Part shown: piece after piece, positions 3,126 through 32,000 of the stretch
Numbering within the stretch: position 1 is the first letter of the stretch
Layout: every line of letters begins with the position of its first letter
The notes under the pieces: generated by a model
Seen by the model: the letters and a program-made list of their open reading frames with translations, nothing else
What the model was told of the DNA's origin: nothing
Databases searched by the model: none
Assembly (NCBI GenBank): GCA_035193785.1
Contig: CP136572.1
Location: 2,000,627 to 2,032,626, forward strand
Direction of reading: 5' to 3'
DNA length: 32,000 nt
Source: Planktothrix sp. GU0601_MAG3
GTDB lineage: Bacteria; Cyanobacteriota; Cyanobacteriia; Cyanobacteriales; Microcoleaceae
Program-made: the position numbers and the translations under genes

Positions 3126-4641
3126 ATGGATATGGCCAATAGTTTCAACAAAAACATCGGAGATAAAAAGCATTTATTGAGTCAATTTAAACTCAGAACT
3201 CAGATGCTTTTTGGTTATGCAATTCCCGTTTTTATGTTTGCGGGTTCTACCTATATTGTTTATAGTAATGCCAATAAGGTATTTGAGGCATTTAATCAGG
3301 TAGAAAATGTCCAAAAAAGTATTATTGAAGTGGATAAAATGGCATTAGCGGGGAGTAATATGGTCGCCAATAGTCGGGGTTATATTATTTCTGAAGAATC
3401 GCAATTTTTAGAGTTATATCAACAAAGTTGGCAGAGTTTCCAGGAAGCTAGTAATACTCTGGATAATACGATTACTGTTCTCGAACAAAGACAACGATTT
3501 GAACAAATGAAAGAAATTGCAAAAAACTATAATCAATATCAAAATCAGTTAGCTAGTTTGTTGGGACAGGGAAAGAGAAAAGAAGCTTTAGAGCTTTTTA
3601 AAACTGGTATAGGTAGTAAACTTCTTTTAGATTTTTTAACCCTTAATTCTGACTTTAACAAGACAGAAATCACAAGACTGAATACAGAAAATCTTCAAGC
3701 TAGAAACACGCTACAAAATGCAATAAACTTATTGGTTTTGGGTTCCATTGTTTCCGCGTTAACCGCTTTTATTATTGCTTGGTTAATTTCTTCCTTAGTG
3801 AGCCGTAAAATTACTCAAGCCATTGATGCCATTGATAATTCTTCCTTAGAAATTAATATTGCCGTTGACCAACAGGAAAAAATCACCAGCAGTCAAGCGA
3901 GTTCGGTGAATGAAACGACTCGCACGATGGATGAATTAGAATTTTCGGCAACACAAGCCAGTGAAACAGGCGGAAACTTCAACATCAGGAGCCAGACAGG
4001 TTTTAAGCCTAGCAGAAAATGGTAATGAATTAGTTAAGCAAACTTTGCTAGAAATGAACCAAATGAAAGAAAAAGTTGAGGCTATCGCGGAACAAATTTT
4101 ACGCCTGAGTGAACAAACTAATCAAATTGGGAATATCTCCCAATTAGTAGGTGATTTAGCCAACCAAACCAATATGTTAGCACTCAATGCCGCCGTGGAA
4201 GCCGTCCGAGCCGGAGAATATGGAAAAGGGTTTTCGGTCGTGGCTTCAGAAATTAGAAAATTAGCCGATGAAAGTCAAAAATCCGCCCATCAAATTAATA
4301 ATTTAGTAATGGGAATTAAACAATCTAATAATTCGACCGGAGTAGTCACCGAAGCTGGAATTAAAAGTGTGGTAAATACCCTGGATTTAGCCCAAAAAAC
4401 CGCTTCTGCTTTTAACGATATGTCCATAGAACTGAGTAATATTGTTCAGAGTTCTCAGCAAATTTCATTAAATTCTAAACAGCAAGCCGTAGCAATTCAA
4501 CAGGTCGTTGTGGCGATGAATAATCTTAATAAAAATGCTCGGGATAGTAGTCTGGGTATGGGTCAAATTAAGCTCGGAATTCAAAAACTCAGTGATGCTG
4601 CTTTTGATTTAAAAGATATTGTCCAAGAAACATCAAAATAA
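3126..4641 (+). CDS. Methyl-accepting chemotaxis protein with an N-terminal CHASE3-like sensor, interrupted by a +1 frameshift
   Basis: ATG at 3126 is preceded by AGGAG. There is a TM helix, a periplasmic helical sensor, a second TM, then the MCP signalling hairpin ([40 protein letters not shown]). ORFs 3072..4025 and 3961..4641 join if one A is removed from GAAAC at 3963..3967 (or 3973..3977). Confidence 0.85.
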
Positions 4642-4690
4642 TCAGTCATCAGTTATCAGTTATCATTTATCAGTCATCAGTTATCAGTTA
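4642..4690 (+). repeat. Heptamer (STRR-like) tandem array, ATCAGTY x7
   Basis: Direct reading: atcagtc atcagtt atcagtt atcattt atcagtc atcagtt atcagtt, immediately after the MCP stop codon. Confidence 0.85.
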
Positions 4691-4740: not shown

Positions 4741-4790
4741 CCTGTTCTTTATTCCCTATTCCCTATTCCCTGTTCCCTATTCCCTTCCAT
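4741..4790 (+). repeat. Heptamer array TTCCCTA/TTCCCTG (reverse complement of GGGAATA)
   Basis: Reads cctgttctttattccctattccctattccctgttccctattccc, upstream of the hydrolase start. Confidence 0.75.
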
Positions 4791-4801
4791 AACCAAAAAA
4801 T

Positions 4802-6509
4802 ATGATTATTAAAGAAACAACTTCTCTAATTACCCGGGATGGAATTAGACTGGATGCGGATATTTATCGACCTGATACGGAGGAAAAATTACCCGTTTTA
4901 TTAATGCGACAACCCTATGGGAAAGCGATCGCTTCTACCGTTGTTTATGCCCATCCAAAATGGTATGCTAAACAGGGGTATATTGTAGTAATTCAAGATG
5001 TGAGAGGTCGGGGAACCTCGGAGGGCGAATTTAAACTTTTTACTAATGAAATAGAGGACGGGTTAGATACTATTAATTGGGTTGCTAATCTTCCCAATAG
5101 TAACGGTCAGGTGGGAATGTATGGATTTTCCTATCAAGGATTAACTCAAGTTTATGCTGCTTCCGGTCGCCCAAAAGCATTAAAAACTATTTGTCCGGCG
5201 ATGATGAGTCATAATTTATATGGGGATTGGGCCTATGAAGGGGGGGCTTTTTGTTTATATGCTAACTTAGGATGGGCGATTCAAATTTCCGCCGAAACAG
5301 CCCGATTAAAAGGGGATAAAATAGCCTATAATTCTCTGTATCAAGCCTCTCGAAATTTACCCTTTTTTGATTCTATTCCTGCTAGTCCAGATGTGTTGAA
5401 AATCTACGATTCAGATTCATTTTATCACGAATGGTTAGCCCATGATAAACCCGATGAATATTGGCAAAATCTATCTCCTAAATTAGATGATTTAGACTTA
5501 CCAATGCTGCATATTGGGGGATGGTTTGATACCTATTTAAGAGGAAACAATTAATTTTTATCAAGAAATGGTCAAGCGTAGTTGCTCCCCCCAATATTTA
5601 ATTGTTGGCCCCTGGGCGCATCTTCCCTGGGGGAGAAAGGTTGGGTCTGTGAATTATGGGTTGACCGCATCTAGCTTTATTGATAGCCTCCAAATTCAAT
5701 GGTTTGATACCTTTTTAAAAGGCAAAGAAAATACAATTTTTAATCAAAATCAGGTTTGTTTGTTTGAGATGGGAAGTCAAGAATGGCGGCAATTTAAACA
5801 ATGGCCTTCATCGCCCTCCCAGATTTATTATTTATCAACTAATGGGTTGGCAAATTTGCGAGAAGATGGGGGAATTTTGACGCCAATTTGTCCTGACAAT
5901 TCCCAAGAAGATGTCTTTGTTAATGACCCTTGGCGTCCGGTTCCCGCCCTCGGAGGTCACGCCATGTATCCCACGGGTTCCTTTGACCGTTCTACCTTAG
6001 ATTGTCGCAGTGATATTGTTACTTATACCTCGGAACCCTTGAGTCAAGATTTACATTTAGTGGGGGATTTAGCAGTAGAAATTTATTGTACAGCAGACAA
6101 ACCGACCTTTGATTTATCTGCGGTTTTATCAGAAGTTAAACCCGATGGAACTGTCTATAATTTTAGTCAAGGGTATCAACGATTTACTTCTGTTAAATCT
6201 AACACAAATAATGATTTTAGTCAAGATAAAAATATAAATTATTATCAAATTAAATTGCAGCCTACTTGTATTAAAATTCCTCAAAACCATTGTTTACGTT
6301 TAAGTATTAGTGGGGCTTGTTTTCCAGCTTATCCTGTTAACTCAGGAACGGAAAAACCCCTCAATCAAACCCATTTAATGGAGCAGGAAATTATCACGTT
6401 AACGATTCATTCTGGGGGTAATTTCCCCTCAAAAATTATACAGGGAACAGGGAACAGGCTGCGTCGTGAGCCTGTCGAACGAGAACAGGGAATAGGGAAT
6501 AGGGAATAG
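4802..6509 (+). CDS. CocE/NonD-family hydrolase (S15 X-Pro dipeptidyl-peptidase fold), interrupted by a +1 frameshift
   Basis: The N-terminus (DGIRLDADIYRP...PVLLMRQPYGK) and GMYGFSYQG nucleophile elbow are typical of CocE/NonD. ORFs 4802..5554 and 5568..6509 join as ...GWFDTYLRGTINFYQEMVKRS...GPWAH when one A is removed from GAAAC at 5544..5548. The C-terminal tail runs into a repeat array. Confidence 0.85.
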
Positions 6510-6572
6510 AGAATAGAGAATAGGCTGCGTCGTGAGCCTGTAGAACGAGAACCGGGAACCGGATTATCAAAT
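6430..6572 (+). repeat. Composite repeat: GGGAACA/GGGAATA/GAGAATA heptamers plus two copies of a ~31-bp unit (aggctgcgtcgtgagcctgtMgaacgagaac)
   Basis: The unit is seen at about 6456..6486 and 6523..6553, each with a small AGGCT...AGCCT hairpin. Heptamers lie between and around the units. Confidence 0.8.
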
Positions 6573-6612: not shown

Positions 6613-8879
6613 TTACGAAGGGGGGTTAGGGGGGTCAACTTTTAACAGCTTAATATTTTGATAAAGTTGATTCAGATATTTTTCAACCTCTGGAGGTTTA
6701 GCCGTAAACTCCACATAAAAAGCTCCCGGGTTCGCCGATTTTTCTAGGACTTTTGCATAAATATCATCACTCCATTGTTCTGATTCTAATTTAATATTAA
6801 GTTTTAAATTAGCCAACGCCCCAGGAATAATATTATTATTCGCCTCCATAACAATTAAACCTCTTTTTTCCGATAATTCCACCAAATTCCCCATTAAAAT
6901 ACTATCGCTGATATGTTTTCCTTCTAAAATAAAATATTGTAATAAAATGGGAGTAGGCATCGGATAAAAATGCTGTTCCTGTTTAGAAATAAACAGATTA
7001 TAGCTTCCGGCAATTCCCCCCACTTCATAAATAGTAATCGGCTTTTTAACTCCCTTGGGTTGAACTAATTTTTGATTTTCAATCTTAATTAAATTCCGAC
7101 CCGCTTGATTTAAGGTCATTTCAGAAACCAAGATTTGTCCAGCCGTTGTATAGGATTCAATCCGATAGGTTAAATTAACTTGACTTCCTACAACCCCATA
7201 TTTTGTGCGTTTTTCTGAACCAATATTTCCCACCACAACTTCCCCCGTATTAATCCCAATTCCCATGTCTAAAGGAGATAAATTCCACGTTTGTAATTGT
7301 TTCATTCACCTTCTCCATGGCTAATTGCATAGCTACCGCACAAGCAATCGCCCTTTGAGCATCATCTTCTCGCAAGGTAGGAGCACCAAATAAGACTAAA
7401 ATTCCATCCCCCATAAACTCATCAATAGTTCCTTGATAGAGAGTAATTACATCAGCCATGCAGGATAAATAAAAGTTTAAAATTTTAACCACTTCTTCCG
7501 GTTGTAAACGTTCTGAAAGGGCTGTAAATCCGCGTAAATCCGAGGTTAAAATGGTGATTTTTCGGCGTTCTCCCCCCAGTTTTAAACCTTCGGGTTTTTC
7601 TAATAAATTAGAAACAATTTCAGCACTCAAATAACGTCCAAAAATATTCCTAATATCCGAAGCCGAACGGGCAATATAAGCAGTAATGGCAATGGCCGAA
7701 CCCGCCAAAGCTAAAAAGGGAGGAACCACCGGAATCCACCATCCTTGGATAAAGAAAAGATAGGTACTTCCCAGTAAAATTCCCGTCGCTAAGATGAAAA
7801 TTGAAAACTGTCGAATAATTAATAATCGGACTGTAGCCGATGCTCTAAATTTCCAGGTTAAAATTGCTCCGGTTCCCGACCAAATAAATATCCAAATCCA
7901 TTCTAAAGTATCGGGTAACGTCTTAATTAACGGACGACTATCTAAGGCCGCACTAATAATTTGACTGGCAATATGAGCATGAACTTCTACCCCCGCCATC
8001 CGTTGATTAGCTGATAATGTATAGGGAGTAGACATTAAATCTTTGAAACTTTCCCCGACGGAACCGATTAAAATAATTCGATTTTCCCCCCAATCTTTAG
8101 GGAGTTTATCGGTTAAAATATCCCGAAAAGAAACAATCTCAAAACTGCGATTATATCCCCGATAATTTAAAAATATTTGATATCCTCCAGCATCAGCCCG
8201 CACATAGCCGCCATCATTTTTAGTCAAGGGTTGAAAAATAGTGTCTTTGAATTTCCACCAATTATTAGTTTCTGGAACAATTTCCGGTGAAATCCCTTGA
8301 GCGTCCAAATAAAACATGGCTAAAAATAAACCCAAACTGTAAATTGGTTGTTTTTGATCATTTTTAACCACTAATAACGCCCGTCGAATAATATTATCTT
8401 CATCTAAAATTAAATCATTGGCTGCTACTCGATTTTTTTCTTTTAAAATTGGAGGGGCGGCAACGGATTCTAAGGATTTATCCCCTACAACTTTTTCAAT
8501 TCCCAGTAAATTAGGAGTTTCTGCCAAGATTTTAATTAACTGTTCGTGACCGGGTTCAAAGGGTAAATCTCGATAAATGTCTAAGCCAATAACCGTAGGT
8601 TTCATGGCGACCAATTTCTCGATTAATTGAGCATAAATTTGGTCAGGGACATAACCTTGACCAATATATTTCATATCGGCTTCATCTAACCCTACAATTG
8701 CAATCCTTTTATCCCTAGGTTTCCGGGGGACGTAGACGCATATATTGGTCATAAACTGCCCATTCCCAGGACTGTAAAATCCCAGAAAAACGCAGTAGAA
8801 TTACTAAACCTGCCATGACTGGGGTTGTAATCCAAACACCACGCCACTCCCACACTAATTGTCTGGTTTTTGCCCTCAT
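6613..8879 (-). CDS. CHASE2 sensor-domain class III adenylate/guanylate cyclase with an extra C-terminal domain, interrupted by two +1 frameshifts
   Basis: The true N-terminus [53 protein letters not shown] starts at the ATG at 8879 and is too short for the ORF track. It joins [16 protein letters not shown]... after removing one base in GTTTC at 8719..8723. The CHASE2 region, 3 TM helices and cyclase core ([12 protein letters not shown]...[13 protein letters not shown]) join ...[33 protein letters not shown] after removing one base in GTTTC at 7299..7303. Confidence 0.85.
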
Positions 8880-8912: not shown

Positions 8913-9686
8913 CTAGGGTTTAGATTGATAATCAGAATTACTCAACGTTGTTTCTGGCGCAAAGGGAGCTTCTACAATTTGTTGGTTAATTTTAATAGAA
9001 GTGAGAAACTCTTTCCATAATTCCGGTTCAACGTTTCGCAATTGAGCCATGATCATTAAGGTATCTTGCCAGAGGTTTTCTCGAGCATAAAGTTCAGCTT
9101 TTTTTAAGGGACTTTGAGCTTTTTCTATTTCATTTTTGAATGTAGGATTGAGTTCATTTCGCTGAATAGAAACCTTCAAAGTATCAATAAATTCTTGTTC
9201 CTCCGTTCCACAGGTAATCGAAAACATCCATTGATATTGACTTCCGGTTTCTAAGGTGACGGTTTCAGGGAGTTGAATCTGTACAATACTTGGTTTTAAA
9301 GGAAGTTGCACGACCGTCGTGTAAACATCTTTGCCCTGTTGATTAATCAGAACAAATTCACCCGTTTTTACCTTAGATTCAGGCACATAAACAAAAAATG
9401 TGGGACGAGCAGAAACCGTTGAGGTCTTCCGACTGGGGACTAAGGCGGTCATTTTTGTATTTCCTATACCACACTCACTGGCGGAAATGGTTTCACCCCC
9501 TCGGGTTCCTCCTCCAGCCGTACTCACTGGCCCATCTCCATCGGGTGTGGGGGGAAATTGCAAACTGATTTGCATGGGGGTATTGACAGGATTGTTCACC
9601 AGTGGAGCCATAGTCGCGAGACTCGCAGCAGTCGGTAATAGAATGCCCAAAATCAGACTGGAAAAACCAACAGACTTGATAACCAT
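8913..9686 (-). CDS. DUF928-family secreted protein
   Basis: Probable start is the ATG at 9686 (MVIKSVGFSSLILGILLPTAASLA signal peptide, AGAGG about 10 nt upstream); the longest ORF extends to 9779. DUF928 hallmarks are present: FFVYVPE..., LP...LETGSQYQWMFSITCG, ELYARENLWQDTLMIMAQLR. Confidence 0.75.
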   Translation of the reverse strand: MVIKSVGFSSLILGILLPTAASLATMAPLVNNPVNTPMQISLQFPPTPDGDGPVSTAGGGTRGGETISASECGIGNTKMTALVPSRKTSTVSARPTFFVYVPESKVKTGEFVLINQQGKDVYTTVVQLPLKPSIVQIQLPETVTLETGSQYQWMFSITCGTEEQEFIDTLKVSIQRNELNPTFKNEIEKAQSPLKKAELYARENLWQDTLMIMAQLRNVEPELWKEFLTSIKINQQIVEAPFAPETTLSNSDYQSKP

Positions 9687-9881
9687 GAGATTATGCCTCT
9701 TTAAATATCCATTGTAATGATCCCTAAGATGCACTATCGGGATCAAAAAATCTATATCCTTTTTTTTGCGAGTTTCCACACCAAATCAGTAGATGACGGG
9801 GACTTACTCCTCCGAGACTGTTTAATCACTTCAGAAGTTGCCAAAAGGCTATTTTTTTAAGAAGATTTATATAATATTTTG

Positions 9882-10383
9882 GAGTCTAAAATTCTAAATA
9901 TCCCCACCGTTTGGGCTAAGTTTGTCGAAGCCTACAATAATAGAGTCTAAAATTCTAAATATCCCCACCGTTCGGGCTGAGTTTGTCGAAGCCTACAATA
10001 ATAGAGTCTAAAATTCTAAATATCCTCACCGTTCGGGCTGAGTTTGTCGAAGCCTACAATAATAGAGTCTAAAATTCTAAATATCCTCACCGTTCGGGCT
10101 GAGTTTGTCGAAGCCTACAATAATAGAGTCTAAAATTCTAAATATCCCCACCGTTCGGGCTGAGTTTGTCGAAGCCTTCAATAATAGAGTCTAAAATTCT
10201 AAATATCCCCACCGTTCGGGCTGAGTTTGTCGAAGCCTACAATAATAGAGTCTAAAATTCTAAATATCCCCACCGTTCGGGCTGAGTTTGTCGAAGCCTA
10301 CAATAATAGAGTCTAAAATTCTAAATATCCCCACCGTTCGGGCTGAGTTTGTCGAAGCCTTCAATAATAGAGTCTAAAATTCC
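9882..10383 (+). repeat. Tandem array of a 61-bp unit, 8 full copies plus a 14-bp partial
   Basis: The unit gagtctaaaattctaaatatccccaccgttcgggctgagtttgtcgaagcctacaataata starts at 9882, 9943, 10004, 10065, 10126, 10187, 10248, 10309 and 10370 (partial). Copies differ only by a few SNPs (ccccacc/cctcacc, cctaca/ccttca). Confidence 0.95.
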
Positions 10384-10403
10384 CATCTTTGAGGACTAAA
10401 ATC

Positions 10404-10775
10404 ATGTCATTTTGGGTTTATATCCTCCGTTGTGCAGACGGTAGCTATTACACGGGACATACTGACAATCTTGACCAGCGATTTGCTGAACATACAACTG
10501 GAGCTATAGCATCCTGCTACACCTATCAGCGTCGCCCTGTAGAATTAGTCTTTTCTCAGGAATTTGCAACCAGGGAAGAGGCGTTGGCTTCGGAGCGTCA
10601 AATTAAGGGGTGGAGCCGGAAGAAGAAGGAAGCTATGATGCTTGGAGATTGGGCTGAGGTGTCACGTCTGGCTCGCTCTTACTCTGCTCAAATCCCAAAT
10701 CACAACGTTCAGACTTCGATAAACTCAGGCCAAATGTCCTTCGACAAGCTCAGGACGAACGGGGAGGATATTTGA
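10404..10775 (+). CDS. GIY-YIG nuclease family protein (UPF0213/COG2827 type)
   Basis: ATG at 10404 lies 8 nt after GAGGA. It encodes FWVYILRCADGSYYTGHTDNLDQRFAEH...RRPVELVFSQEFATREEALASERQIKGWSRKKKEAM. The last ~20 codons (..SFDKLRTNGEDI) are translated from repeat copies. Confidence 0.85.
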   Translation: MSFWVYILRCADGSYYTGHTDNLDQRFAEHTTGAIASCYTYQRRPVELVFSQEFATREEALASERQIKGWSRKKKEAMMLGDWAEVSRLARSYSAQIPNHNVQTSINSGQMSFDKLRTNGEDI

Positions 10776-10845
10776 TACTCCTGAATATTCCGGCGACTCT
10801 CTAATTTCTCCAAACGACAAGCTCAGGACGAACGGGGAGGATATT
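10742..10845 (+). repeat. Two perfect 31-bp direct copies (cgacaagctcaggacgaacggggaggatatt), inverted relative to the core of the upstream 61-bp unit
   Basis: Copies lie at 10742..10772 and 10815..10845, with a degenerate third at about 10714..10736 (cttcgataaactcaggccaaatg). The reverse complement matches aatatccYcaccgttcgggctgagtttgtcgaag at about 29 of 36 positions. Confidence 0.85.
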
Positions 10846-10856
10846 GCAAGATAGAT

Positions 10857-13586
10857 TTAATCTTGAATTCCTCGCCATTCTCCTTGTAAAGTAAACCCTG
10901 ACCAATAGTAGGGGGGTACCCATCCTGAATCGTTTTGCATCTGAATTTGAGCCTGTCGTAAAGCCGCCCCAGGAGCTAATCCTTCCTCTAATATTCCTTT
11001 ATAAAATTTAACCATTAATTCGGCTGTTGATTGGTCATCAACTTTCCATAAACTCACCACCACTCGACTTGCTCCCGCATACATAAATCCCCTAGTTAAA
11101 CCAACTAATCCTTCCCCTTTGATCTCTTGACCTAATCCTGTTTCACAGGCACTTAATACCACTAATTCTGCGGGTAAACTTAGGTTAAAGATATCATAAA
11201 GTCGTAAAAATCCATTCTGAGATTCTCCATTTTGATTAACTAAAGAAAAAACTAAACCTGATAACTGAGGATTTTCACTATTGAGTAAACCATGGGTGGC
11301 AAAATGCACAAAACGGTATTGACTTAATTGGGGATTGGTTGCGGTTTCTCGACTAGCATTAAAACCCACTTCTTGTAAACTATTGTCTTCAGGAACTAAC
11401 CCTAAAATTTGGTTTGCTTCTTCTTGGGTAAAGGGTAAACGATCAAATAAAACCCCCGATTCTCTGGCGGAACGTTCTAAATCTGGAGGAAGCGCTTTCA
11501 GTGCTTGAAGAACAACGGATTTTAAGCGATCATCTGTGGAAGCAAATACGGGATCAGCTAATACAGCTAAGAGTTTTTCTGGGGGTTTTCGATTTTGATT
11601 TTCTTCCCGCATAATTCCCAAAACTGAAGCCGAAGGTAGGGTTAATAATTCATGATTTATAATTAAAGGAATCGCCTCGCTATCCCCAGGGGCTCCCGGT
11701 TCGGGAAGGGCGGCAAAAGGAACATATTGTAATGCACCATCGGCGACAATCAATAATCGTTTATTTTTTAAGGATGGGATTAAGGGGAAAGCAATTTGGG
11801 TCAGGGCTTTTCCCGTTTCTTCGTATAGCGATCGCCGCAATCTTTTACTAGGTAAAATCAGATTATCTCTAAAGTTTTTAACGGCGGTTTCAATAGTTTT
11901 TTCTGGGGGTAATTCATAACTTTTGATAGAATTAGGAGTAACGGCCCATAAATAACTGCGTTCTTTGCCGACGGCATATTCTAATAAAACCGTCTGGTCA
12001 TCTAATAACTTTTGAATCCCAGTTAGAGTTAAGGGTTGGGGTTGAGTTAAGGTGGCATAATGGGGATTATTTACCCGAATGGTATCTAAAACTTGGCTAT
12101 AGTCTTGGAGTAAGATTTCAATTTCTTGGTTGAGTTCCTGTTTCTGTTGATTCGTATGGGGCTGACTCAAAAGTTTAACTCGCTGTTCTTCTAAAGTCGA
12201 TAATTTTTGTTTTAAGGTTTGTTTTTTAGTTAAAAGTTGGGGGTCAATTCCCGAGGTCACTTCTCCTTGAGCTTGAGCTAAAATATCTAATAGGGATCTA
12301 GCCTTTGCTCGTTCACTAATTTGTAAGGCTTTTCCATCCCATCCTTGATTCGGTTGTTGTTGATTCAGTTGCATTAACAAATCAATATAGAATTGGTAAT
12401 AGTCCTGTTTAGATGCTAAAAAAGAGGCTCTTAAGTCTTGACTATTAATCTTAGTTCGTAAATCTTCAACAATAGTTAAAGCCGTTTCAATTTGGGCGAT
12501 CGCCTCTGCAAAATTACCCTTTTTTCGTTCAACTGTCGCCACTCGATATCGAGATAAGGCTTCTTTTGGTTGATCGCCGATTTCTTGACGAATTTTTAAA
12601 GATTGATGATATAATTCTAAGGATTTCTCTAACTTGTTTTGCTGAAAATAAATAAACCCGATATTATTTAGGGTACTGGCTTCTCCGGTGCGATCGCCAA
12701 TTTTCTGCCAGAAATTTAAGGCTTGATTATAGGTTTCTAAAGCTGAATCTAATCGATTCAAATTTGCATAAACAAAACCAATATTATTTAAGGTTGCGCC
12801 TTTCCCACGCTGCACGTTAACCGCCACACTATCCCCAAATTTATTAATAACTTCTTCCCATAAAGCCAAGGCTTGTTGATTATGCTTGAGGGCGACTTCA
12901 AACCGATTTAATTCCGACTCCACCTGGGCAATATTATTTAAAACCGCCGCTACATTCGTAGGGTTTCCTAAAGGTTTAACCCCAACCAAGGCTTGATTAT
13001 AATAATTTAGAGCTTGTTGAAATTCTCCTAAATTAAAATAAATCAAAGCCATCTCATTTAAAGTGGCGATTTCTCCGGTTTTAAAATTAGTTTTTTGCCA
13101 TAAAGGGAAGGTTTGATTTAGAGTATCTAAGGCTTTTTGATATTCCCCTAATTGACCATAAATCTTAGCGATAGAAATTAACGTTGTGGCTTGGGTTTGT
13201 TGATCTTCCAAGGTTTGAGTTAAAACCAATAATTGATTATAACAATTAATCGCTTTGGGATATTCTCCTAAACTACTATAAACAGAACATAAAAAATTAC
13301 GAGTCATCAATTCCTGCTGAGGGTTATTAGCTTCTCGCCCCAGACGTAACCCTTCTTCCCATTGTTGAATCGCCCCCCGAAAGCCAGCTATCGTCCCCTC
13401 TCGATAACGTTTTATCCCTTGATTAAAGATATCTTCTGCCTTAGAATTAGAATTAGTGATTTCTGTAGATTGCCCTTCCCTTGCGATCGCCGGGAGAAGG
13501 ATTCCAGAAACTAAAAAAGACCCCAGAATCAGGAGGCAAAACCAGGCCAACAAAAATTGATTTCTGCGTCTATTACTGTGTATCAT
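10857..13586 (-). CDS. TPR-repeat CHAT-domain protein (caspase-like protease fold) with an N-terminal signal/anchor
   Basis: 909 aa. There is an N-terminal hydrophobic segment and about 8 TPR units (LNNIGFVYANL, LNNIGFIYFQQ...). The C-terminal CHAT domain has the His/Cys dyad context FVHFATHG and VVLSACETG. Confidence 0.9.
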   Translation of the reverse strand: MIHSNRRRNQFLLAWFCLLILGSFLVSGILLPAIAREGQSTEITNSNSKAEDIFNQGIKRYREGTIAGFRGAIQQWEEGLRLGREANNPQQELMTRNFLCSVYSSLGEYPKAINCYNQLLVLTQTLEDQQTQATTLISIAKIYGQLGEYQKALDTLNQTFPLWQKTNFKTGEIATLNEMALIYFNLGEFQQALNYYNQALVGVKPLGNPTNVAAVLNNIAQVESELNRFEVALKHNQQALALWEEVINKFGDSVAVNVQRGKGATLNNIGFVYANLNRLDSALETYNQALNFWQKIGDRTGEASTLNNIGFIYFQQNKLEKSLELYHQSLKIRQEIGDQPKEALSRYRVATVERKKGNFAEAIAQIETALTIVEDLRTKINSQDLRASFLASKQDYYQFYIDLLMQLNQQQPNQGWDGKALQISERAKARSLLDILAQAQGEVTSGIDPQLLTKKQTLKQKLSTLEEQRVKLLSQPHTNQQKQELNQEIEILLQDYSQVLDTIRVNNPHYATLTQPQPLTLTGIQKLLDDQTVLLEYAVGKERSYLWAVTPNSIKSYELPPEKTIETAVKNFRDNLILPSKRLRRSLYEETGKALTQIAFPLIPSLKNKRLLIVADGALQYVPFAALPEPGAPGDSEAIPLIINHELLTLPSASVLGIMREENQNRKPPEKLLAVLADPVFASTDDRLKSVVLQALKALPPDLERSARESGVLFDRLPFTQEEANQILGLVPEDNSLQEVGFNASRETATNPQLSQYRFVHFATHGLLNSENPQLSGLVFSLVNQNGESQNGFLRLYDIFNLSLPAELVVLSACETGLGQEIKGEGLVGLTRGFMYAGASRVVVSLWKVDDQSTAELMVKFYKGILEEGLAPGAALRQAQIQMQNDSGWVPPYYWSGFTLQGEWRGIQD

Positions 13587-25717: not shown

Positions 25718-25833
25718 AATTTTCTGATAACTAATAACTGGTACGGGTGCGCCAATAGCCTAACGAGATTGCGCTTTGCTAAGGTGCGTCTAACCACTGA
25801 TAACTGATAACTGTTTACTGATAACTGAATTAA

Positions 25834-27160
25834 ATGACTTCTATCCTCGTTAAACCATCTTTGCCTCGACCGATCAATACCCCCACTGTTCATCAACTCT
25901 CCAATGGTCTGACCATTGTGGCAGAACAGTTAGCCGTTGATGCGGTAAATCTCAATGTTTGGATTAATATTGGTTCGGCCATTGAATCCGATGATATCAA
26001 CGGTATGGCGCACTTTTTAGAACATATCGTTTTTAAAGGCACACCCCATCTGCAAATCGGCGAATTCGAGCAAAAAATCGAACAGCGGGGCGCGGTCACC
26101 AATGCGGCAACCAGTCAGGACTATACCCATTATTACATCACCACCGCCCCCCAGGACTTTGCGGATTTAGCTCCCCTACAGTTTGATGTGGTACTCAATG
26201 CCAGTGTGGCGGATGAAGCCTTTGAACGGGAGAGATTTGTCGTCTTAGAAGAAATTCGTCGGGCGGAAGATAACCCAGGTCGGCGTTTCCTTCCGTCAGT
26301 CCATGGAAATCGCCTTTGAGCAACTCCCCTATCGTCGTCCAGTTTTGGGGCCAGCATCGGTGATTGAGCAGTTACAATCCCAACAAATGCGGGACTTCCA
26401 TCGCACCTGGTATCAGCCCCGCTCCATGACCGTCGCCGTGGTGGGTAATTTACCCGTGGAAACTCTGATCCAAACGGTAGAAAATGCCGTTAGCTCCGTT
26501 TATCCCGCCTCCTCGATGGCTTCCGCCCTGCCGGAACTCCAACCCTGGACTCCTGAAGCGAGTTTTCAGGAAATTGTCCGTCAAGAAATTATTGATGATA
26601 CCTTGGAACAAGCCCGATTATTGATGTTGTGGCGTGTACCCGGTTTAGCAGAACTCCCTCAAACCTATCCTTTGGATATTTTAGCCCATATTTTGGGCCA
26701 AGGAAGAACCGCACGACTATTCCAAGATCTACGGGAAAATCGCGGGTTAGTTTCGTCGATTTCTGCGAGTAATATGACCCAGCGTTGGCAGGGGGTATTT
26801 TATATTTCAGCCCGTTTACCCGCAGAGAATTTAGCTCTAGTTGAAGAAATTCTCACCGATCATATTCGTCAAATCCAAAGCGAATTAATTACCGAAGATG
26901 AAATTGCCAAAGTTAGGATGCAGGTGGCAAATCGGTTTATCTTTGGCAATGAAACCCCTAGCGATCGCGCTGGGTTGTATGGATACTATCAATCTCTGGT
27001 GGGGGATTTAACTGCGGGTCTCCATTACCCCGATCATATTCAAGGTTTGAGTTCAGAAACCGTTCAACAGGCAGCACAACAGTATTTGTCTCCCAATGCC
27101 TATGGAATTGTGATTTTAAAACCTTCCTTAAACAGTCATCAGTCATCAGTTAACAGTTAA
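25834..27160 (+). CDS. M16 (pitrilysin/insulinase) family zinc peptidase, interrupted by a +1 frameshift
   Basis: Has the inverted zinc motif HFLEH, with the downstream E in EEIRRAED. The halves join as ...EDNPGRRSFRQSMEIAFEQLPYRRPVLG... after removing one T of GTTTC at 26285..26289. The C-terminal tail (SHQSSVNS) reads into heptamers. Confidence 0.85.
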
Positions 27161-27200
27161 CAGTTAACTGTTAAACAGTTATCAGTTAAACAGTTATCAG
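27127..27200 (+). repeat. Heptamer array CAGTCAT/CAGTTAA/CAGTTAT
   Basis: Reads cagtcatcagtcatcagttaacagttaacagttaactgttaaacagttatcagttaaacagttatcag, spanning the M16 stop codon. Confidence 0.8.
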
Positions 27201-27462
27201 TAAAATTACCTTCCCTGAATTCAAGAAAACCCAGAGTTGGGAAGTTTCTGGGGACTAATAATGGTAAAATCGTGAAACGCTTATATTGTAGGCGTCATCG
27301 CCTTCTAAAGTGATAAGGTTTAAGGGCAAAAACCGCTTGATTTTTATTGGGTTTTGTGGGTTAACCCCAATAATGTATCCAAATTTTTCCCAAATCTCGG
27401 TAAAATTGTCCTGACAACTTTGATCCCCATGTTTTTTGAGTCATTGGTGAGAATTAGCCTCT

Positions 27463-29575: not shown

Positions 29576-29693
29576 ACCTGGCACCGAGCTATTTTCCCAG
29601 ACGGCTACCCGCCAAGTATCTTCGCCGTATCAGCGTTTCACTTCCGAGTTCGAGATGGATCGGAGTGGTTCCACTGAGCCATAGGCACCAGGA
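29576..29693 (-). rRNA. rrf: 5S ribosomal RNA (copy 1)
   Basis: The minus strand reads TCCTGGTGCCTATGGCTCAGTGGAACCACTCCGATCCATCTCGAACTCGGAAGTGAAACGCTGATACGGCGAAGATACTTGGCGGGTAGCCGTCTGGGAAAATAGCTCGGTGCCAGGT. It has the conserved CCGAAC-type loop region, GAAGTGAAAC and closing helix I, and is about 118 nt long. Confidence 0.9.
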
Positions 29694-29948: not shown

Positions 29949-30066
29949 ACCTGGCACCGAGCTATTTTCCCAGACGGCTACCCGCCAAGTATCTTCGCCG
30001 TATCAGCGTTTCACTTCCGAGTTCGAGATGGATCGGAGTGGTTCCACTGAGCCATAGGCACCAGGA
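29949..30066 (-). rRNA. rrf: 5S ribosomal RNA (copy 2)
   Basis: Same sequence as copy 1, offset by 373 bp. The track ORF 29850..30050 is antisense to it and spurious. Confidence 0.9.
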
Positions 30067-31602: not shown

Positions 31603-32000
31603 GTGGAGATCGAAAAATCCTATAAAATCTTAGACCTAGAACCCGGGGTAAGCTTAGAGGAAGTCAGACAAGCCTATCGCCATCTAGCATTGATCTGGCA
31701 TCCCGATCGCTATCCCCAAAATTCTCCCATACAAATCCAAGCCGAAGCCAAATTCAAAGAAATCAGCCACGCCTACGAAACCCTAAAAACCCATTTAAGT
31801 CACCCTCCCCTCCCTCCCTCCCCCACCTCCCCTCCCTCCCCTCCCTCCCCTACTCCCCCTGCTCCCCCTGCTCCCTCCGCCCCCCCTGCCCCCCCTACTC
31901 CCCCTACTCCCCCTACCCCAACTATCCCCCTAGGTTGGCTAACGGGGGTGTTTATTTGCTATAGCCTGATTGCTTGGATTTTAACGACTTTGGGGATTCC
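31603..32000 (+). CDS. J-domain (DnaJ-like) protein with a Pro-rich linker and C-terminal TM segment (partial; runs off the window)
   Basis: YKILDLEPGVSLEEVRQAYRHLALIWHPDRYP...KFKEISHAYETLK carries the HPD motif. It is followed by PPLPPSPTSPPSPPSPTPPAPPAPSAPPAPPTPPTPPTP and then a hydrophobic stretch. The start is assigned to the GTG at 31603 (no in-frame ATG); this is uncertain. Confidence 0.65.
   Translation, partial: MEIEKSYKILDLEPGVSLEEVRQAYRHLALIWHPDRYPQNSPIQIQAEAKFKEISHAYETLKTHLSHPPLPPSPTSPPSPPSPTPPAPPAPSAPPAPPTPPTPPTPTIPLGWLTGVFICYSLIAWILTTLGI

Follow-up and report, generated by a model that had tools for sequence, protein, structure and literature searches.

A small GIY-YIG nuclease gene bracketed by inverted copies of a dispersed hairpin motif in Planktothrix and in relatives from many phyla

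We analyzed a 32,000-nucleotide stretch of the genome of the cyanobacterium Planktothrix sp. GU0601_MAG3 (contig CP136572.1, positions 2,000,627 to 2,032,626; hereafter, the window), in which a small GIY-YIG nuclease gene, located between a DUF928 gene and a CHAT gene, is bracketed by inverted copies of a short hairpin motif. This bracketing is a conserved feature of the gene family and not a local oddity. The locus is probably a nuclease and cognate-repeat module of the Ssn/NTS type, built with a protein from a different GIY-YIG clade and with a different hairpin. Ssn proteins are single-domain GIY-YIG proteins (CDD cd10448) of ~94 residues that cut single-stranded DNA (ssDNA) only, at a site adjoining a hairpin repeat (NTS in Neisseria; SRM as the general term); NTS flanks the ssnA gene on both sides and is dispersed in hundreds of copies, a layout that the authors liken to IS200/IS605 and REP/RAYT (Chenal et al., Nat Commun 2025, PMC11893778).

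Under the interpretation that we favor, the 92-residue GIY-YIG protein most likely binds ssDNA carrying the motif, on the strand that would read 5'-CCGTTCG-nnn-TGAGCYTGTCGAA-n'n'n'-3'; a few bases outside the CCGTTCG flank, the protein probably introduces a nick. The gene would be placed between two inward-facing copies of its own site, with more copies scattered through gene-carrying genomes as singlets, inverted doublets and arrays. In the cyanobacterium of the window, the module appears to be a ~1-kb insertion directly after the CHAT stop codon, and slipped or break-induced copying at the motif would probably have multiplied its upstream site to eight units of 61 bp. By analogy, its role might be, for example, to restrict incoming ssDNA, as in Neisseria, or to control recombination.

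When one genome per species was scanned, more than 558 relatives of the gene were obtained, of which the best 80 loci were kept; 74 of these have complete flanks and represent more than ten phyla. The 80 loci belong to Beta-, Gamma-, Alpha- and Deltaproteobacteria, Campylobacterota, Cyanobacteria, Verrucomicrobia, Nitrospirota, Chloroflexi, Fibrobacterota and Binatia, and the proteins from these many phyla are 66-87% identical to the conserved core of the window protein. Typically, a motif copy in '-' orientation lies 40-110 nt before the start codon, and a '+' copy begins ~281-350 nt downstream of the start codon, where the conserved core has just ended. An upstream '-' unit was found in 57 of the 74 loci and a downstream '+' unit in 60; units were present on both sides, in the same inverted geometry, in 47 (64%), and at least one unit stood beside the gene in 71 (96%). 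The motif density in these loci was 5.0/kb within 300 nt of the gene and 0.17/kb beyond, a 29-fold difference. The preliminary description of the window had proposed that the nuclease gene is framed by its own cognate inverted repeats, in an arrangement reminiscent of REP/RAYT or of homing endonucleases; the related loci support the former comparison, and the latter is the weaker of the two.

In the window, the GIY-YIG gene occupies positions 10404-10775 on the + strand (Pfam GIY-YIG, E 8e-20). Its single-domain conserved core comprises the first 92 codons (10404-10679), with PF01541 covering residues 3-75, and an alternative TTG start lies at 10389. The remainder, a non-conserved C-terminal tail with the stop codon (10680-10775), is read through motif copies: the first perfect copy shares sequence with the final 12 codons (SFDKLRTNGEDI), which precede the stop codon at 10773-10775. 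The full protein has 123 residues. Upstream of the gene, Tandem Repeats Finder (TRF) called a single array on the + strand, at 9882-10382, with a period of 61, 8.2 copies, 98% matches and a score of 960. Every repeat holds one motif unit in '-' orientation, which reads CCGTTCG-GGC-TGAGTTTGTCGAA-GCC on the + strand, and the unit cores lie on the - strand at 9907-9929, 9968-9990, 10029-10051, 10090-10112, 10151-10173, 10212-10234, 10273-10295 and 10334-10356. Divergence is greatest in the first unit; at the other end, shortly ahead of the ribosome-binding region, the array closes with an incomplete unit, gagtctaaaattc.

Downstream, there are three copies in '+' orientation. The first is degenerate (TTCGATAAACTCAGGCCAAATG, 10715-10736, read from the sequence), the second is a unit TCC-TTCGACAAGCTCA-GGA-CGAACGG with a local extension GGAGGATATT (10737-10772) that overlaps the end of the coding sequence, and the outermost (10813-10845), with the extension GGAGGATATT, forms the right end of the cassette and is truncated on its inner side, beginning at CGACAAGCTCA. 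The 23-nt core TTCGACAARCTCAGSMCGAACGG occurs eight times on the - strand, always in the array, and twice on the + strand (10740-10762 and 10813-10835), against an expectation of 0 by chance (100 shuffles). A perfect 31-mer is found at 10742-10772 and again at 10815-10845, and the unit at 10737-10772 matches the reverse complement of an array unit at 29 of 36 positions. Our analysis thereby reproduced the layout given in the preliminary description: the 61-bp by 8.2 array, two perfect 31-bp copies and one degenerate copy downstream, inverted arms agreeing at about 29 of 36 positions (exactly 29), a C-terminus translated from the motif, and a small gene of the UPF0213 type.

Motif conservation was assessed on 609 distinct instances collected by anchoring on the 13-mer alone. 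The 13-nt loop TTCGACARGCTCA is invariant, the 3' flank CGAACGG is kept in ~93-97% of the instances (loop and flank together, ~95-100%), and the three bases on each side of the 13-mer are complementary in 91-97% of copies while their identity varies (CCC/GGG, TCC/GGA, TGG/CCA, TGC/GCA and GGC/GCC were all seen). The motif is a small hairpin with a covarying stem. In 103 dispersed copies from metagenome and viral contigs, double-sided changes numbered 55, 48 and 14 at the three loop-adjacent pairs, and unpaired cells numbered 7, 8 and 0; the covariation score was 0.287, compared with 0.095 in shuffles (0 of 500 reached 0.287) and with at most 0.109 when the partner columns were slid. An additional left arm, CCGTTCR, which pairs with the CGAACGG flank, is present in only ~40% of copies.

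Loci lacking the canonical 13-mer carry the variants TTCGATACCTCA or TTCGAGRRCCTCA within the same outer arms. The loop TTCGAGRRCCTCA occurs in four loci (L048, L049, L066 and L071 in our numbering), whose four proteins cluster together. Two further loci, L054 and L063, have TTCGATACCTCA or TTCGACACCTCA upstream; downstream, TTCGATACCTCA recurs in L054 and a degraded copy is found in L063, and their proteins share a distinct C-terminus despite belonging to different phyla. Variant loops that travel with protein subclades in this way are suggestive of gene-motif co-evolution. Two other kinds of variant with these outer arms were seen in loci of this sort. Some units are nested in the loop of another unit, with both half-sites symmetrically duplicated, and others are loop-expanded, with an extra GC-rich stem in place of the 13-mer center; the loci concerned are L073, L080, L058 and L074 (in the gene flanks) and L060, L075, L031 and L069.

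Such hairpins could instead act in RNA, as a terminator, a stabilizer or an mRNA leader element, the nuclease gene being unrelated or merely a regulated neighbor. In position, the two copies would suit this: the transcript probably carries the upstream one in its 5' leader and has the downstream one at its 3' end. On the sense strand, moreover, the mismatches of the upstream copy are G.U-compatible. Set against this, Rfam scans of the window and 17 related loci, by gathering threshold and by E-value, assigned no family and gave only weak miRNA-like matches from long palindromes, and a promoter and terminator scan of 9650-10950 found nothing above chance and called no terminator-like site. The better-folding strand of the downstream copy is the antisense one, dispersed copies occur in both orientations, and the related SsnA does not bind RNA (PMC11893778). 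An RNA-level role also leaves unexplained why the motif is enriched 29-fold around one gene family across phyla, and we regard it as very improbable.

The window protein has the GIY-YIG catalytic domain with the GIY Tyr, YIG Tyr, Arg and Glu positions kept, as expected of the superfamily, and in our alignment VYIL, YYTG, R..EH and E.QIK are conserved across all groups. In the PDB it matches solved UPF0213 proteins (1zg2, E 7e-16; 1ywl, E 6e-13). The protein libraries NCBIfam, PADLOC and PHROGs returned no family for it, so that a known defense-system or phage-family label is unsupported. A protein search returned 5,725 relatives, the best 120 of which were examined: they are 63-87% identical over the first 92 residues, and those with source names represent several phyla (Gamma- and Betaproteobacteria, Deltaproteobacteria, Zixibacteria). 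Nearly all of these 120 homologues end in variable C-terminal tails translated from the motif. The recurring tail peptides (VRPEPVEG, VRAELVEA, SVHPSTSSGRTE, ILRQAQDERT and PFDKLRANG; also STSSGRTE, LRQAQDER and FDKLRANG) are three-frame translations of both strands of the window's motif.

Strong purifying selection acts on the GIY-YIG protein. In comparisons of the window gene with 25 relatives, the nonsynonymous divergence (dN) was 0.11-0.27 and the synonymous divergence (dS) was saturated, and the third-position GC content (GC3) of the relatives ranged from 0.35 to 0.76, tracking the host. Given the saturated dS and the host-following GC3, we attribute the high cross-phylum identity to strong constraint, and very recent cross-phylum transfer was rejected as its source. 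Since the protein is so constrained and the non-coding motif is conserved over the same span, the motif itself is evidently under selection as well. The simplest explanation of its constancy would be recognition by the equally conserved protein encoded between its copies. In sphingomonads, a gene of the same clade is found at one constant position, with nrdR on one side and an RNA methyltransferase gene, whose start it overlaps, on the other (L327, 3001-4049; downstream flank of L074); it carries the loop variant TTCGACTTCGCTCA.

Exact-pattern scans found the motif at no fewer than 120 metagenome loci and at least 120 viral loci; among the matches listed, the gene was within reach in 3 of 120 metagenome loci and 0 of 120 viral loci. 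The association is thus one-sided when judged locus by locus, as it is for REP/RAYT, because the motif accompanies nearly every gene, whereas the gene is distant from most copies of the motif. Adjacent copies are mostly inverted (120 '-+' and 58 '+-', vs 32 direct pairs), much like REP doublets. Motif centers fell in open frames of at least 600 nt in 55% of cases vs 80% for random positions, a crude measure in GC-rich DNA, by which an intergenic preference is weakly shown. As a negative control, the motif was absent from 5,426 complete E. coli genomes.

Ssn/NTS is the closest known system to the window module. Chenal et al. assign proteins to the Ssn family by homology to N. meningitidis SsnA (blastp/tblastn E < 1e-10, coverage of at least 75%) or by CDD cd10448, and the members are single-domain proteins of ~94-150 residues. 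The two have in common a single-domain protein of ~90-100 residues without an additional DNA-binding domain (92 residues for the window core), a repeat-gene-repeat order with the conserved 5' repeat flank outermost and the copies facing inward, a repeat that is dispersed in many copies and apparently lies mostly outside genes, a gene-repeat pairing that spans many phyla, and, in the protein, the catalytic Tyr, Tyr, Arg and Glu together with a C-terminal segment K(G/K)W.R..K...DW..L. The general Ssn architecture, in which a flanking hairpin repeat stands on both sides of the gene and is also dispersed, was found in our related loci at the frequencies given above (47/74 on both sides, 71/74 on at least one). 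An NTS scan of viral contigs provided six NTS-associated GIY-YIG genes for comparison, and in L380 a GIY-YIG gene is bracketed by NTS copies in the same inward-facing geometry as in the window. Mean similarity was 65 bits (43%) between the present clade and UPF0213, 45 bits (34%) between the present clade and Ssn, and 24 bits (29%) between UPF0213 and Ssn. By these sequence comparisons, the clade is intermediate, nearer to UPF0213 overall and sharing the KGW...DW segment with Ssn. Separately, the viral contigs contained dense clusters of Neisseria-type NTS, with up to 13 copies per 1-2 kb (L329-L448, e.g., L338, L375 and L405).

UPF0213/COG2827 proteins (B. subtilis YazA, E. coli YhbQ, BH0048 and EF2693, Slx1-like stand-alone domains) are the best solved-structure matches, and they resemble the window protein in identity (~43%), in their equal size and in their single-domain build. 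They differ in that their housekeeping context, beside a COG4123 methyltransferase gene (trmN6) and without repeats, is not that of the window gene, which is repeat-framed between CHAT and DUF928; in addition, YazA-type proteins have no C-terminal KGW...DW segment, and the motif is missing from E. coli, the host of YhbQ. REP/REPIN-RAYT and IS200/IS605 TnpA systems also place a small nuclease gene between inverted hairpins that are dispersed as singlets and inverted doublets, and these systems further resemble the module in a likely long-term vertical persistence and in a hairpin with a conserved flanking tag. The enzyme fold, however, is unrelated, GIY-YIG acting without a covalent intermediate in contrast to HUH Y1, and the window protein is accordingly no RAYT; moreover, REP sequences are lineage-specific, whereas the window-type loop is identical across phyla.

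Several points weigh against the assignment to an Ssn/NTS-type module. The window protein is only 32-37% identical to the six NTS-associated homologues, over 69-87 of its 92 residues, and the pairwise E-values of 1e-10 to 1e-13 would weaken at genome scale because they were obtained in a tiny database. As the mean similarities indicate, the clade is nearer to UPF0213/YazA (43%) than to Ssn, and the yazA genes of B. subtilis and Listeria lie in a trmN6-yazA-rsmI operon without repeats. The mode of conservation is also different: the window-type motif has an invariant 13-nt loop and a covarying stem, whereas NTS conserves its stem sequence and can do without the loop (PMC11893778). The SRM pattern, HGTCWYN(0-2)YYVSBRHN(0-5)WNVSBRGN(0-2)RNCYNB, recognizes NTS. 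It did not match the window cassette, nor any sequence within 500 bp of the gene in the 80 related loci, so that SRM flanks as defined by this pattern are absent. There is no other motif copy within the 32-kb window, the dispersal being known here from other genomes, and the window copies are of the short form without the CCGTTCR arm, folding singly at -2.1 to -2.7 kcal/mol, no better than shuffled sequences. Motif binding and cutting by the protein, the ssDNA substrate and the cut position are predictions, drawn from the analogy with Ssn and from sequence patterns.

The choice of strand is subject to similar reservations. In 118 long-stem copies read on the TTCGAC strand, A.C and C.A mismatches (132) exceed G.T and T.G mismatches (28), and the former become G.T wobbles when read on the opposite strand; the asymmetry is, however, dominated by one position (pair 4, A.C in 79 of 118), and the constraint on the CGAACGG sequence acts as a confounder. 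As ssDNA, better folding (-8.6 vs -6.4 kcal/mol) was also obtained for the strand whose loop contains TGAGC, TGAGCTTGTCGAA. The mismatch asymmetry and the greater ssDNA stability together indicate the TGAGCTTGTCGAA strand as the folding one.

A more specific version of the Ssn/NTS-type reading is a fair way from being the expected one, but it has real weight as a tentative proposal. The locus would then represent a second, undescribed nuclease-hairpin family on the UPF0213 side of the GIY-YIG tree, occurring in at least 10 phyla including cyanobacteria, whose members would read the invariant loop TGAGCYTGTCGAA and the CCGTTCG flank and not the stem, and whose cuts 7-10 nt outside the flank would drive tandem amplification and nesting. 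What is new in relation to the known systems is the protein clade, a widespread motif missed by the SRM pattern, the pattern of conservation and the motif-seeded arrays, none of which was found in the searchable literature; searches on the motif string, the motif-derived peptides, and GIY-YIG combined with REP/RAYT gave nothing relevant. The word 'tandem' occurs 0 times in Chenal 2025, and motif-seeded tandem arrays are unmentioned there.

The cassette lies between the DUF928 gene (8913-9686/9779, - strand; PF06051, E 3e-45) and the TPR-CHAT gene (10857-13586, - strand; PF12770, E 3e-68), immediately after the stop codon of the latter. In Planktothrix pseudagardhii (L086), the CHAT, DUF928 and CHASE2-cyclase genes are consecutive, CHAT and DUF928 are intact, and the CHAT-DUF928 gap is 172 bp long and free of the cassette. 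Homology in the alignment runs up to the CHAT stop codon and resumes ~160 nt before the DUF928 start codon, so that ~1 kb is present only in the window; the native 160-nt DUF928 leader (9690-9850) is conserved with relatives. At the right end, homology resumes a few bases past the outermost motif copy, and the end of the insert is the end of that copy. Two AGATTTA heptamers, at 9863-9869 and at 10853-10859, bound the extra DNA, the second of them overlapping the CHAT stop codon (10857-10859); at this one site, the pair may be a target-site duplication or a chance 7-bp match in AT-rich DNA. By this comparison, the cassette is an insertion that splits the CHAT-DUF928 pair, in agreement with the earlier view that the GIY-YIG gene interrupts the cluster.

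An insertion of this kind might suggest a selfish homing-type or transposon-like element whose nuclease cuts double-stranded empty sites and whose repeats are the element ends. The ~1-kb insertion right after a stop codon with its possible 7-bp duplication, the GC content of the cassette (0.46-0.49, against ~0.38 in the flanks), the inward-facing terminal repeats, and the short '-,+' doublets elsewhere, which resemble gene-less derivatives (120 '-+' vs 58 '+-'), would all fit. Homing GIY-YIG enzymes such as I-TevI and Seg share the catalytic domain and can be free-standing between host genes. They possess, however, a separate DNA-binding domain that the window protein lacks, they cut double-stranded DNA, and they are not framed by dispersed cognate hairpins, while the window-type gene has an old, host-adapted codon composition. 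GIY-YIG nucleases cannot carry out strand transfer. The saturated dS and the host-tracking GC3 likewise speak against a selfish element, as does the partly taxonomic clustering of the protein, in which the window groups with two other cyanobacterial loci (L005 and L010) and sphingomonads share the nrdR-methyltransferase site. Plasmids rarely carry the gene (12 records, all below 60% identity), it was not seen in the 120 motif-bearing viral loci among the matches listed, and the 7-bp repeat may be due to chance. On balance, we consider a selfish element improbable, and the Ssn/NTS-type module remains the interpretation that we prefer.

Tandem arrays were surveyed in 2.4 Mb of related and motif-bearing loci, which contained 53 distinct arrays with a period of at least 20 and at least 2.5 copies. 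The terminal heptamer of the motif was present in 18 of the 53, compared with 2.5% of random windows of the same size. Motif-seeded arrays share an anatomy: a full motif unit comes first, and after it N x [7-10 nt + GCTCAnnnCGAACGG]. The repeated element has the form [7-10 nt + GCTCA-nnn-CGAACGG] and is present up to nine times; the arrangement also occurs in mirror image. Their boundaries are reproducible, one inside the loop before GCTCA and the other 7-10 nt beyond CGAACGG, a pattern that suggests that DNA may be broken, or synthesis restarted, 7-10 nt outside CCGTTCG. The preliminary description had offered repeated events at the motif as one origin of the window array, and this view gains support from the survey.

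Plain replication slippage between the 13-nt direct repeats gagtctaaaattc, with the motif as a mere passenger and no link to the nuclease, would account for an array that is perfectly head to tail with 98% identity and whose 3' partial unit provides microhomology. Heptamer and other tandem repeats are also common in the window: ATCAGTT, TATTCCC, GAATAGG and AACAGTT are repeated 5-10 times at 4641-4690, 4750-4785, 6483-6524, 25796-25828 and 27128-27205. Slippage alone does not, however, predict that motif-seeded arrays recur in unrelated genomes with reproducible boundaries, and this recurrence favors a process at the motif over generic slippage, which we consider rather unlikely, though less so than a selfish origin of the cassette. 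The window unit is larger than those of the related-loci arrays and contains the whole motif, so it is not a clean example of the class; from its sequence, we take the window array to belong to the same phenomenon. A second assembly of the same genome (L081) is identical over 20,372 bp and therefore uninformative on variation in array copy number. A CRISPR array was rejected as an identity for the repeats: unique spacers are absent, and the 61-bp units are near-identical, including the part between motifs.

If the protein does cut the motif, the ability of a minimal GIY-YIG domain to read an ssDNA hairpin would extend to a different clade and to loop-based recognition, and the almost unstudied UPF0213-like proteins would gain a first functional lead. 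A new enzyme-site pair would also add a specificity to the ssDNA-cutting toolbox proposed by the Ssn authors. Should the proposal of a second family be true, UPF0213-like proteins in general may be site-specific ssDNA nucleases, and the peptides VRPELVEG, FDKLRANG, LRQAQDER and SLSNHE in bacterial annotations would receive one explanation. The pairing with the nuclease would account for a very widespread bacterial repeat, translations of which pollute protein databases as spurious open reading frames (ORFs) and variable C-terminal tails. Motif-seeded arrays may serve as a natural record of where DNA breaks or is copied, which makes the mechanism directly testable. At the window locus, CHAT and DUF928, otherwise a conserved pair, are separated by the cassette, and their expression may be altered by it.

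The surroundings of the cassette provided several further observations. CHAT has been lost or truncated in different ways in relatives, which marks the CHAT-DUF928 junction as a rearrangement hot spot: P. agardhii (L082/L083, 5840-5900) keeps a short TPR remnant beside DUF928, and in a metagenome relative (L085, 611-2209) the CHAT domain is replaced by two small ORFs. The neighboring CHASE2-adenylate/guanylate cyclase gene (6613-8879) does not stay in one reading frame but occupies three, shifting near 8721-8728 and 7295-7302, and corresponds to a single protein of 744-754 residues in Planktothrix relatives; the second assembly is identical to the window here, and the gene is probably a pseudogene or carries two frameshifts. 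A C-rich low-complexity tract lies at 31803-31932. Finally, two identical 5S rRNA genes are arranged in tandem 373 bp apart on the - strand (29576-29692 and 29949-30065), with no 23S rRNA signal in the 1.9 kb that follows them on that strand.

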